Positions 1,515 to 64,000 of a DNA stretch of 64,000 nt are shown in pieces. The stretch is from the NCBI GenBank assembly GCA_030264375.1, contig JASCQW010000027.1:76141640-76205639 (forward strand), read 5' to 3'. The notes beneath the pieces are model-generated. The model was not told where the DNA came from, did no database searches, and was given only the letters and a program-made list of their open reading frames with translations. The stretch's first letter is position 1, and every line of letters begins with the position of its first letter. The position numbers and the translations under genes are program-made. Source of the DNA: Carcharhinus longimanus (taxonomy: Eukaryota).

Positions 1515-4500
1515 ATGACCACCCCAGCAGCCTGCAAATGCTTCAACCATCACTGCAAACTGTCCACTATCACCATCACCAACAATAGAAAACAGAAGAT
1601 TCAGATGCTCCCTCTAAGTATTAAAATATTGTTTTATAAGAGATTGACTGACTGATAAAGGTTTAATTCAATTAAGTATGTAAATATACATTAACTGTGC
1701 ACAAGCAAAGATTGTGCGCATTTGGCTGGCACTGGATTTTTTTCTTTGGTGTGATACTCCTTTCAGTAAAGTTCTATTATACCATTGGAGTCTTCAATAA
1801 AGTAGACGGTAACTTGTATCCAAGAAGACAGGCGAAGACATATTTCAGCAGGCTTTCATTTTACAGATTCATCACCTAATCCTTGGGCAATGTGATTGTT
1901 TTTGCACTTTACTTATTGGAGTTCTGTCCACATCTTTATTGCAACGTGTTCTGAAAGACAATTCCACCTCACTTTTAACACTGGAGACTGAATGTTCACT
2001 TGCCTTTATAAGCCCAATTGAGCAAAACTGCTGATATTGGAAATTGCAGGTTTTCAAAAAGCTGGAATTATAATGGAGCCTAGAATGTAGGAGTTTGCCA
2101 CAGTCCTTATTAAAAGCATGTATTTAAAAGTTTTTTTAATGAGTAAGTTATAACATTTATGAAGAGAATTGAATGAAAATGTAAAGTAATTTTTAAATAG
2201 TCGATTATCAAACAAATCAAAACCTCAAATTGCTGTTTTCATTTTTTGTTTCAAATATTCAGTTTTGTGGTGGTGAATGCATGCTGATTTTCTACTAGAA
2301 ATAGTTTTCTTCAATGGAGGATTGTGCTTGAATGAAGAGTATACTAAAAGCCTCAGCGCAAGGTATACTTGGAAAGAACAAGCATGACTCGCAGTAATTG
2401 TGTTTAGTTTACAAAACACGGCTCACAAAACCAGAGGTTTTGTGCTTAAACTCTGTTTAGGAAAGGCAATGAATATATTGTGTATTTTCGTATTTTGGCA
2501 ATTACTGTCAGTCGGGGAATGGGGGAAATGTTTGAACAGATGCGCTTCATGGTGTAAGAATTCATATTCTTAATCCAATTTGATGGCTCCTTGTGTGTTT
2601 AAGTACAATTTTGTCAGTGGTCTCTTTTCCATAGAGGTATTGTATCTCTTGGTGAAGCTTGTCATAATAAAACATTGCAATATCCATTTTCTTATTACAT
2701 CATTGTAATTTCTGTTCAAAATGTAATTTGGACCAGTAGAATAGTATCAGTTATAATATTTTGTTTATTGTCTCATACTAATCACTTTAAATTGAAACTG
2801 GAATCAGTTCAAAACAATTCAACTGGCCCAAATTAATTATCATGAAGATAAAAATTTAAATACATTATATCTTATGATGCTTGCAAATCTGCATAGTGCA
2901 TCAATTTAATTCATAATTCAAAGTTGTTGTGTAGTTGCATACCGTAATTATCAATATTTTGTCTCCGAACATGAAACTACTGATTAAACTATTGTGCTAA
3001 CATTGACAACATTAAACCCTTTTTTGTTCAACTATTTTACCTGCATGTGCAAAAATAGGAAAATTTGAACTCCTTTTGTGCATTATCCACCTTTTGCAGG
3101 CTTGGACAAATCATGTTTTTCATATAGTTTAATATTTCACCTTTCGTTCACATGTTTATTTCTGATATTCTATACTAATGTCAGTATTCTTAGGGATGAG
3201 AACTCAAGGTTCAGCTTTGGTGTCATTACATCAGTTTGAAGCTGAACTTCAGATCATAAGTAAATAAGTGTTTAATTTGACCAAACCACGTGTTTCAAAG
3301 CCCACTTACGGTTGTATTCAGTGTTCAAAGGAGTCTATGACAAATAGTTTGACGGTCAACTTGACTTTATCTTTGAAAGGTGTAATTCTATTCAATGATC
3401 ATTTTTCTTAATCTTCAGCTTTGGTCCATTGCATGTAATTTATTCATTGTTGAGCTTGTAGAATGAACTCATAGAAGCAACTATTCAGAGTGCATTGTTT
3501 TAAATTGCAGACAGTGATCTAGCTGTGGTTTGGAAACTGTTTCTTGCCTGTATACATAGATGTGGGATACTGGGATGCAACATCTTTGTAGGAAGCTTTT
3601 GGTATATAATTTGAAGAGAAGCTGTTAGAAATGAACACAGTTGTATAGTACTAAAAACAAACATGTTTTGTACCAGATCCCATAAGGTCTGATTATTTAT
3701 GGCTTCAAGCATCACTGAGTAATTCATACAAAAAGTAACTTAATTGCTACTCTCAGAATTACTATCTCTTTTATTAGAGATGCCATTGTTTGCTATGATA
3801 AGGTTACTATCATCTAGCTGCTTTACAGTCTTTCATTTTCCTCTCTAGCTTCCATCTTCATTGGAGAAGTGAGATTTTGTCCTGTGGAACATAGCTTAAT
3901 TGTTTGATGTGAAGATTGTTGTGTGTGAACAATATCAAATCCCAACTAGCTATTGTTTTGAACAAGAATATGCAGGATACCATTTCTATTCTCTATGTTG
4001 CTTAAAAATGGAATTGAAGGAATCCTTGCTTAAGGAGGTTATTTGAAATTACACTAGGTTCATGCTATTAGAGGAACATTATAAACTGACTTGAAAAATA
4101 CAAAATTACTGGACAATGTGCCTATTCTTTTGTAAATGGGTTCTTCTGTTGGGTACTGTAGTCATGTTAAATTATGAGTGACAGGAGGTGTTCACAGAGC
4201 GTGTGTGTCTCTAGGTATCACAGGATTTTGCTATATTTTTAAGTTGAGTAACTTGCAAAAAGTACATTTTTTTTCCTAAGTTATAAGCTTAAAATGAAAT
4301 TCAATTAACCTGGTATTCTGTGGAGTAAATGGTGAACATCCTTGCACACTCTCTAAGGTAACGTGGAACTGACCTTTTGCTTATTTAAAAAGGTAAATTT
4401 AGTATTGAATGTTCCCCAATGCACTGCAAATTAGTCTATTTTTCTAAGATATTTTGCGGGTGCCAATTTTTTTTCCTCCCAGCACCGCAATGTTCTTTGG

Positions 4501-23682: not shown

Positions 23683-24102
23683 ATCAACTTCTCAGCCTTT
23701 TGGCTAAGGTCAAGTGTAGTATCGACATGTTGTGCGTGGTTGAAGTCATTAGGGTACATTTTAGCTTCATTTGAAACAATTTTTAAAAGCGGCATCTCCG
23801 CCTTTTGGCTAAGATGCAAATGAGATCAAGCCTTGGAGGAGGAGCAATGCCTACTCCAAGCNNNNNNNNNNNNNNNNNNNNNNNNNNNNNNNNNNNNNNN
23901 NNNNNNNNNNNNNNNNNNNNNNNNNNNNNNNNNNNNNNNNNNNNNNNNNNNNNNNNNNNNNTGCCTACTCCAAGCAGCTGGGATCATGTAGATCAAGCCC
24001 AAGACAAGAGGTGAGAGCCCTGCCTTGTCAGCTTGGATCGGGAATGTCTCAACTTGTTGAGACTCTGAATTGGACTTAATTGGAATAAAAAACAAAAAAA
24101 AA
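23683..24102 (+). mobile_element. U2 snRNA-headed short retroposon candidate, copy 1
   Basis: U2 nt ~1-40 (cttctcagccttttggctaaggtcaagtgtagtatc), then a non-U2 body shared with 63943-64000. A second U2 fragment sits at 23795-23815, a hairpin at 24046-24063, then AATAAA and an A-rich tail. Contains a 100-N gap. Confidence 0.75.
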
Positions 24103-27012: not shown

Positions 27013-27489
<477 letters not shown>

Positions 27490-62409: not shown

Positions 62410-63903
62410 GTAAGTATGTCACATGCTGAATGGTAATTTTGTTCTGTATCCATGTTGCTGTTTATGTATGCAACCTGATAGGGCTTAGATCAGTTGGCAA
62501 GATGTGATAATGGTGTGAGAGCAGTGTAACAGAAATTAGGCACCTTTCTCTAGTTTTGGCTTGGTTGTTTCTCTAAGGCCAGCCACAAATTTAAGCAGCT
62601 CAAATCCATCTGCTGTTTAGATTCCCATTCCAATCTTATTTAATTCAATGCTGAAAATTTTACCTGTTATGGACTAGAAAGAAAAATAACTCGAATGCTG
62701 TGTGGTTGAGGATTAGTTTCCACATGACCAACAGTTCCATTTTATATTTAAGTGATGGGATATTCAGAATTGAGGAAGTCTTGACAATTCCTCTGGGATG
62801 CAAAAGGCTGATTATCTGATGAATGTGAGAAGCCAATTGGAAACTTCTGAAAGAGAAAAATCCAATTTGAATTTATGATAATGTCTTGATTAACATGACT
62901 CCAAAAATGGTGAGAACTTCAAGAAAAAGGAGAATGTATATCAAAACGCCAGCCAGATAGACCAACTTGTTCATCCAGTCATTTGCACAAGTCTGAGTTT
63001 AGTTCTTGGAATTCATTTATTATTTGCCACTCCTGAGCAAGGTGAAAGGATGTCTGTTGTAAGTATTGAACTACATTGTAGACTTTATTGATTTGGGTGT
63101 TCATTTTTTAAATCAATAAATTCTCTAACATTTGATTATCCATGATTTGTGAAGATGAAACAAGAGTTTCAGGAGGGATAGACTAAGTTCAACAGCTGAA
63201 AGAAATTATCGGATAGTTTGCTGCTTGTTTCTCATGCATGCTACCAAATGATTATTTAGATTTCAAAATAAGGATAAATATTCCTGGAGTTCTGCTGAGC
63301 TGCGATGCACCTAAGTATGATCTAAGACAAGGGAGCTAAAATAATTGAATATAAAAGTAAGCAAAAGTCCACAAATGTAGCCAGCAGTATTGACTGTTCA
63401 TAAGAGTTCTTAAGTGCTATAGTGTTGTTGACTCTGTTATAGTTTCATAATGAGACAGAATTTACAACTAAAAACAAATTATATATCAGTGTTGCTCAAC
63501 TGAATATTTTATTTCCTTACATTAAGAAAGAAATTATCTAATGTGGCATCTTAACATATCTTAAAGACTCCCAAACCCTTTCATAGTTAATGAAGTACCT
63601 TTGAAGTGTCACTGTTATTGTGTAGACAAATGTAACAGTTGATTTATGCAAGGAAATTTTCTGCAAATGAGAAATGAAATAAATAACCACTGAAATTCTT
63701 TTGATATTATTGGCTGCGTTCAAAAATTTGCCTAGGATACCACATTGAAGACGTCAACGTATTCTTTTATGTTCACCGAATATGCAGAAAGGACCTGTTA
63801 ACTTCTCTCATAAAGTGACTCATGGAAGTACCAACCTAAGTACTGTGTGGCAGCATTCTGCTTGATGTGTTATCCTTTCCCTAATAAGCTTTTTTATAGA
63901 GGA

Positions 63904-64000
63904 TTCGCTTCTCGGCCTCTTGGCTAAGATCAAGTGTAGTATGGACATGCTGCACTTGGTTGAAGTCATTAGGTTACATTTCAGCTTCATTTGAAGCAAT
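63904..64000 (+). mobile_element. U2 snRNA-headed short retroposon candidate, copy 2 (cut by window end)
   Basis: tcgcttctcggcctcttggctaagatcaagtgtagtat = U2 nt 2-39 with one mismatch. The rest aligns without gaps to copy 1 (14 differences in 98 nt by manual count). Confidence 0.75.

Follow-up and report, generated by a model that had tools for sequence, protein, structure and literature searches.

Two copies of a U2-headed element in the window

The window analysed here is a stretch of 64,000 nucleotides (nt) from the shark Carcharhinus longimanus (contig JASCQW010000027.1, positions 76,141,640 to 76,205,639, forward strand). It carries two copies of a short retroposon, hereafter family 1, that begins with the 5′ end of U2 small nuclear RNA (snRNA). 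Copy 1 lies on the plus strand at 23683..24102, the extent assigned by an earlier note on this DNA. The element is indeed there, but its true length is ~306 nt rather than 420, since the interval includes an assembly gap of 100 N (23862..23961) and a 14-nt overlap (23848–23861 recurs at 23962–23975); intact copies elsewhere measure ~310 nt. Copy 2 is represented by its 5′ part (63903..64000, plus strand), and continues for ~220 nt past the window end to an A-rich tail, making it complete.

The head of copy 1 (23683..23723) corresponds to U2 nt 1–40, and the heads of two copies elsewhere (L219 and L230) are 100% identical to U2 1–40. In an Rfam scan, U2 is the sole match of the window copies, restricted to the 5′ ~40 nt of each (expectation value (E) 5.3e-05 for copy 1 and 6.9e-05 for copy 2, below the gathering score), and no tRNA, 5S or 7SL match is found. 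Where this match ends, both copies continue into the same downstream sequence, as the earlier note had described. Its gapless alignment with 14 differences over 98 positions (23683–23780 against 63903–64000) was reproduced in a recount by eye, and we likewise see no likeness between the upstream flanks of the two copies.

The head is followed by segment A, ~65 nt (23724..23791), without significant match to U2 or to an older family, family 2 (the natural copy L002 was tested). At 23792..23819, a second and decayed U2 5′ motif (approximately U2 nt 4–30) opens the part assigned to family 2. This part comprises a first hairpin unit that duplicates the family 2 hairpin and is split by the assembly gap (23823..23985; family 2 profile E 4e-06, and fold), and a second hairpin unit homologous to family 2 (23990..24039; E 3e-14 for the unit plus tail). 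A terminal hairpin (24046..24063), aligned through family 2 to U2 nt ~68–85 and seen in the fold, has as its U2 counterpart what we take to be stem-loop IIb. It precedes AATAAA and a short A-rich tail (24084..24102), the same 3′ arrangement as previously noted; no target site duplication (TSD) is visible at copy 1. The body had been called non-U2, which may hold for segment A; by comparison, the 3′ half comes from the older U2-derived family, and the second U2 5′ motif had been overlooked.

A coding exon of DRC1 (27124..27261, plus strand) lies on the same strand as both copies. Its 46 residues have shark proteins as their best matches, at 91–93% identity, in agreement with the host gene named earlier; the copies presumably lie in its introns.

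Family 1 is a dispersed retroposon family

Family 1 has a common layout of 309 alignment columns (~310 nt): U2 nt 1–40, the 65-nt segment A, a further, decayed copy of the U2 5′ end, a pair of hairpins and an A tail. A search of the same genome gave 3,107 first-look candidates; the 40 that were scored consisted of the copy in the window plus dispersed ones at 92–94%. An 18-mer from segment A has 1,397 exact genome matches, as against 0 for the control, and 13 of 25 and 15 of 26 top-hit copies contain it unchanged. Scaling on this basis gives at least ~2,600 copies, a lower limit because the top hits used are the least diverged; we put the family as a whole at no fewer than ~2,600–3,000. The flanks adjacent to the copies are unrelated, with no similar pair among 93 3′ flanks and four among 125 5′ flanks.

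The U2 head is a constant part of the element. In a similarity-independent sample (62 of the initial ~75 motif hits on contig C1, contained in 60 stretches), from which copies truncated past the motif are excluded by design, a head remnant is present at 59 of 60 loci; the BLAST starts fall at U2 nt ≤8 in 38 cases, nt 9–20 in 14, nt 21–33 in seven and later in one. Among 29 loci picked by the 3′ half, 26 retain a head remnant, one is truncated in the body and two are hidden by gaps. These counts speak against most members lacking the head, an outcome that the earlier note had allowed for.

Marks of retrotransposition are also evident. A TSD score of ≥10 is reached by 10 of 53 copies and by none of 53 in any of six mismatched control pairings, which bears out, together with the copy number and the head, the earlier proposal of a multicopy chimeric retroposon with a U2 head. 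Past the A tail, no target consensus emerges in 89 copies. In four copies (L157, L193, L158 and L172), the A-rich tail of a different retroelement lies just upstream. Measured from the column majority, mean divergence is 5.5% for 54 top hits, 7.0% for 27 positional copies and 4.8% for ten loci joined to U2, described below. The variable columns among 91 aligned copies are mostly CpG, and no subfamilies are definable in this alignment. Assembly gaps, often with overlapping ends, interrupt a large share of copies (L157–L216, and 23862–23961 in the window), so that lengths and counts from this assembly need care.

The 3′ half and the older family 2

Family 2 was reached through locus L120 and comprises U2 nt 1–34, a hairpin and a body alignable to U2 41–191. 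This alignment is significant in all 15 copies compared (z 5.2–12.8; 0 of 200 shuffles for each), with a profile E of 2.2e-08. Its divergence is 10.7%. A family 2 19-mer occurs 468 times in the genome and is found unaltered in 8 of 25 sampled loci, corresponding to at least ~1,400 copies. Examples are L132–L156 (for instance C142:24992930–24993340), each a remodelled near-whole U2 turned retroposon; in a subset of family 2, a palindrome of ~120 nt is inserted at U2 nt ~31.

Two matches to the family 2 profile lie in the 3′ half of family 1, one at each hairpin unit. They indicate that family 1 holds a family 2-like unit, shortened, with its hairpin duplicated and with an A tail added. Most of the family 1 body is, as far as sequence comparison can tell, remodelled U2 acquired via family 2. 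This derivation depends on family 2 as the intermediate: when the family 1 3′ half is aligned to U2 directly, the score is not significant (z 1.2; reached by 27 of 200 shuffles). Segment A gives no match to U2, nor to any of the eight family 2 copies compared.

Copies joined to U2 at nt 38/39

A small minority of family 1 copies are flanked by U2, and most are not. The copy L052, found by its tail alone, continues from its A tail directly into U2 38–188. A junction-pattern search gave the seven exact matches set out below, and an Rfam search added L098. A search with the L098 junction returned 30 loci, of which 20 were read in addition to L052. Nine of the read loci span the junction, giving 10 distinct family 1 loci in total (L052 and L099–L107); two of the ten joined loci (L052 and L098) were found without a junction-shaped query. 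In all ten, the A tail is followed by U2 from nt 38/39 onward, L107 having a small deletion just beyond this point. With a head that stops at nt 40 and a U2 sequence that picks up again at nt 38/39, the joined loci have the layout of one U2 gene interrupted with a duplication of 2–3 nt. The U2 sequence 3′ of Utopia, a U2-specific element, starts at nt 39, and the 3′ flank of Keno is identical, as described in section 6 of PMC4640811.

The same base is used by other sequences. An A run followed by U2 from nt 38 onward has seven exact matches, two in family 1, four at tails resembling those of long interspersed elements (LINEs) and one as a bare A run inside U2, and the family 2 copy L120 has the same nt 38/39 junction. 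The U2 part of nine joined loci is of the type of gene L069 (90–99%), and in the tree that of L052 falls into a variant U2 class separate from L069 (support 95/92). The variant class at L052 and the family 2 copy L120 argue that the site was struck more than once. Only 27 exact, intact 24-nt U2 targets remain in the assembly, which places ten hits at one base far beyond chance.

The 3′ ends of the joined loci vary: four reach nt ~230, ~40 nt beyond the end of mature U2 and within the 3′ flank of gene L069, two stop at nt 149 followed by an A run, and the others lie at nt 112, 114, 126 and 188. The two that stop at nt 149, L101 and L105, come from different contigs and share a change at nt 119 that is absent from the other 20 rows. 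L105 is 5′-truncated within the body and has no U2 5′ piece in 7 kb.

At L052, the U2 head is immediately preceded by a whole 5S rRNA-like sequence (L052:1950–2070, minus strand), identified by eye, and another repeat is inserted just after that head. Plain U2 retrocopies (L074–L082, L089, L095 and L115) mostly share one end point in the flank of the gene, ~40 nt beyond mature U2. At L063:1090–1520 (minus strand) there is a tandem pair of variant U2 sequences, the first following a LINE tail at nt 38/39 and the second carrying a bare A run at nt 38/39.

5′ ends and added heads

Of 125 copies, 29 reach U2 nt 1 and have no upstream bases in common. In L219, a full copy is preceded by 17 nt of the upstream flank of L069 with two mismatches, both at CpG, and a further U2 piece ending at nt 38 lies upstream of this stretch. 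Longer or doubled U2 heads occur in 8 of 17 loci read, which had been selected by the query, and end for the most part at nt 45–54, most added pieces in general ending at nt 44–55; extra U2 5′ pieces are also found in unselected sets (L014, L041 and L163). Template switching to U2 RNA is thus common here.

The U2 genes themselves fall into types (L069, L070, L071, L072 and L084–L086) with unrelated upstream regions and 77–95% identity, and L072 is a tandem U2 pair ~1 kb apart. The U2 gene arrays are poorly assembled, with L069 on a 3.5-kb contig. At a dispersed site, L218 (G000:C112:522839–522932) holds ~80 nt of U2 upstream flank and U2 1–18, without the element.

LINE sequences at the same site

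The LINE-like tails that occupy the nt 38/39 site are alike, and a 21-nt motif from them has 633 genome occurrences, which implies that the LINE, too, is mostly dispersed. A 5′ fragment of a LINE (L225/L235:8440–9115, minus strand) has two U2 5′ pieces before a fragment of open reading frame 1 (ORF1; PF23057, E 5.9e-11). Two of 125 family 1 copies lie ≤90 nt downstream of a LINE tail of this kind, as against one motif in 175 kb of flank. Judging from its insertion site, the LINE may be of Tx1/Keno type. A 125-residue LINE piece upstream of the L063 junction has no Pfam match, and a zf-RVT match there belongs to a different, downstream piece. No full-length LINE is present in three 10-kb stretches or in L235. 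When the family 1 profile was compared with LINE-bearing or related loci, as the earlier note had advised, it matched at U2 heads only (7 loci, fragments).

Proposed mechanism and alternatives

These observations are consistent with a reading to which we give a good, though not high, probability: a family 2 derivative would have entered a U2 gene at nt 38/39, been transcribed from the U2 promoter and been spread by a loosely targeted Tx1-type LINE. The insertion would have supplied the derivative with both a U2 head and an external promoter. RNA polymerase II would start at U2 +1 and proceed through U2 1–40, the insert with its A tract and the remainder of U2. The common 310-nt copies would arise where reverse transcription is primed at the A tract, and the rare copies with the rest of U2 and its flank where priming occurs further 3′, the element RNA being copied by a Tx1-type LINE with loose targeting. 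A copy that landed again in a U2 gene could become a new master and gain a new head. An extension of this scheme, which we hold tentatively and at slightly less than even odds, is that sharks evolved a lineage of their own of U2-derived short interspersed elements (SINEs) that renews itself by homing, each re-entry at the Keno site providing an snRNA promoter and a fresh head and founding the next family. Homing, if true, would explain how snRNA-headed SINEs are transcribed and why they gain heads repeatedly, and it predicts the same junctions in the crocodilian SINEU elements.

Several observations weigh against entry into a U2 gene. A query made of the L069 upstream region and the head (40 scored out of 626 candidates; 17 loci read out of 20) recovered the 17-nt extension of L219 and the U2 fragment of L218, but no copy preceded by an intact U2 promoter region and no master. 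The upstream region of a second U2 type gave no element and no master (6 of 6 candidates scored), nor was a master seen in the upstream regions read directly; the queries covered these two types and not those of L070 and L072. A master of ~6% divergence may have been lost since. The master copy that the earlier note had suggested looking for was thus not met among the scored candidates, and the note's proposal that a master locus is transcribed from a U2 promoter keeps the indirect support of the joined loci, the L219 flank and the starts at nt 1. Template switching could alone explain these starts and L219. In the tree of U2 3′ parts (32 of 38 rows; rows <100 nt dropped), which does not separate the L069-type rows, the joined loci are not grouped together. 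Plain U2 retrocopies end at the same nt ~230 and are of similar age (6.1% versus 6.6% divergence), and 3 of 13 start at nt 37–39 with no element upstream. Independent insertion events in scattered U2 retrocopies could account for the joined loci as well. In Utopia, insertion can remove the U2 5′ piece, as documented in PMC4640811, which reduces the weight of L105. In the positional sample, none of 62 hits has U2 downstream, many being cut by gaps. Finally, the LINE partner is a presumed one, deduced from fragments.

Many of these points would fit an alternative in which template switching to U2 RNA supplied the head, the master lay outside the U2 genes beside a flanking promoter, as in the model proposed for crocodilian SINEU (PMC4494074), and the joined loci arose by dead-end insertion into U2 retrocopies. 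This account, which we regard as unlikely while granting it about a quarter of the weight, draws on the frequent extra U2 5′ pieces, the plain retrocopies of similar age and with the same 3′ end, and the missing promoter-bearing master. It is harder to reconcile with a fixed head at nt 40 that overlaps the resumption point, when added pieces mostly end at nt 44–55; with the want of a common non-U2 5′ extension in the 29 copies that reach nt 1; and with the 3′ end and private change shared by L101 and L105. An internally deleted, non-autonomous Keno or Utopia copy that lost strict targeting, one of two origins offered in the earlier note, is improbable in our view: the use of nt 38/39 and the LINE tails at that site speak for it, but the 3′ half is U2-derived via family 2 and the fragments of 7 LINE-bearing or related loci are matched at U2 heads only. 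Segment A could still be LINE-derived. The link to Keno would be one of target site and not of ancestry, and of the two proposed origins the SINEU-like one fits, in view of the U2-derived body.

A still smaller probability goes to a polymerase III SINE of the classical type. In the head and segment A, words loosely resembling an A box and a B box can be picked out by eye, ~38 nt apart; the latter seems to lack the invariant C of the B-box consensus. Family 1 also contains four runs of at least four T, the first at U2 nt 15–18, which argue against transcription by polymerase III, and the Rfam result for the window copies, U2 only, points the same way. Least probable of all, to the point of being negligible, is a local duplication or a set of independent U2 pseudogenes, for which nothing speaks: the 18-mer count against its control and the dissimilar 3′ flanks rule out that only the two window copies exist. 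The preferred reading remains entry of a family 2 derivative into a U2 gene, followed by LINE-mediated spread.

Comparison with known systems

As judged from its sequence features, family 1 is best classed as SINEU-like and not as a member of Keno/Utopia. It shows the features of that class, namely a U2 head, a length of <500 nt with an A tail, a shared structure, TSDs with 5′ truncation, snRNA additions and T runs. Similar to SINEU-1 (PMC4494074), it is short and non-coding, has a U2-derived head, an A tail and thousands of copies, and displays repeated 5′ snRNA additions, partial duplications, TSDs in only part of the copies and internal T runs; LINEs with snRNA heads occur in the same genome in both cases. 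Family 1 differs from SINEU-1 in its shark host, in a 3′ half traceably derived from U2 and in showing no preferred transposon target, the crocodilian preference for Mariner-N4_AMi having no parallel among the flanks compared above. It differs further in having copies inside U2 at nt 38/39, which are not reported in PMC4494074, the comparison being by description rather than by sequence. Family 2, like SINEU-3 (PMC4494074), is a remodelled near-whole U2 gene turned retroposon; by comparison, it carries insertions and not an internal deletion of ~50 nt, and no Mariner target is seen in its flanks by eye. The shark family is probably independent of the crocodilian families.

Keno and Utopia, as portrayed in the relevant sections of PMC4640811, share with ten family 1 loci the 3′ junction at U2 nt 38/39. 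They are protein-coding and most of their families are flanked by U2, whereas family 1 is non-coding and nearly all of its copies lie elsewhere. Unlike a classical SINE, family 1 has no polymerase III RNA head in the Rfam scan of the window copies. R2 is autonomous and stays at its site; in family 1, by contrast, the 5′ end of the target travels with thousands of dispersed copies. The two are alike in that a promoterless element would be transcribed from its target gene, as is the case for R2 and 28S rRNA in the work cited in PMC4494074.

SINEU elements have been found only in crocodilians, their new heads have been ascribed to template switching, and their transcription was left as an open question, U1 and U2 having no internal promoter (PMC4494074). 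Where SINEU is mentioned in PMC5381603, PMC5753468 and PMC5786205, those passages give no shark example. Our literature searches returned no report of a shark or other non-crocodilian snRNA-headed SINE; Repbase, Dfam and subscription journals were outside their scope, and family 1 may already be catalogued. The shark elements would constitute a second, probably independent lineage of snRNA-headed SINEs with an older and a younger family, in which copies inside U2 make the transcription question testable. They also present a non-coding passenger and LINE tails that share one U2 site though both are mostly dispersed.

Family 1 would furthermore supply thousands of insertion markers common to related species. 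The body without its head was matched in 24 sequencing runs from 14 studies, with no RNA set listed among them; six presumed-RNA rows matched at shares of 0.16–0.20, which has no bearing on expression, and seven organisms matched at shares of 0.32–0.76.
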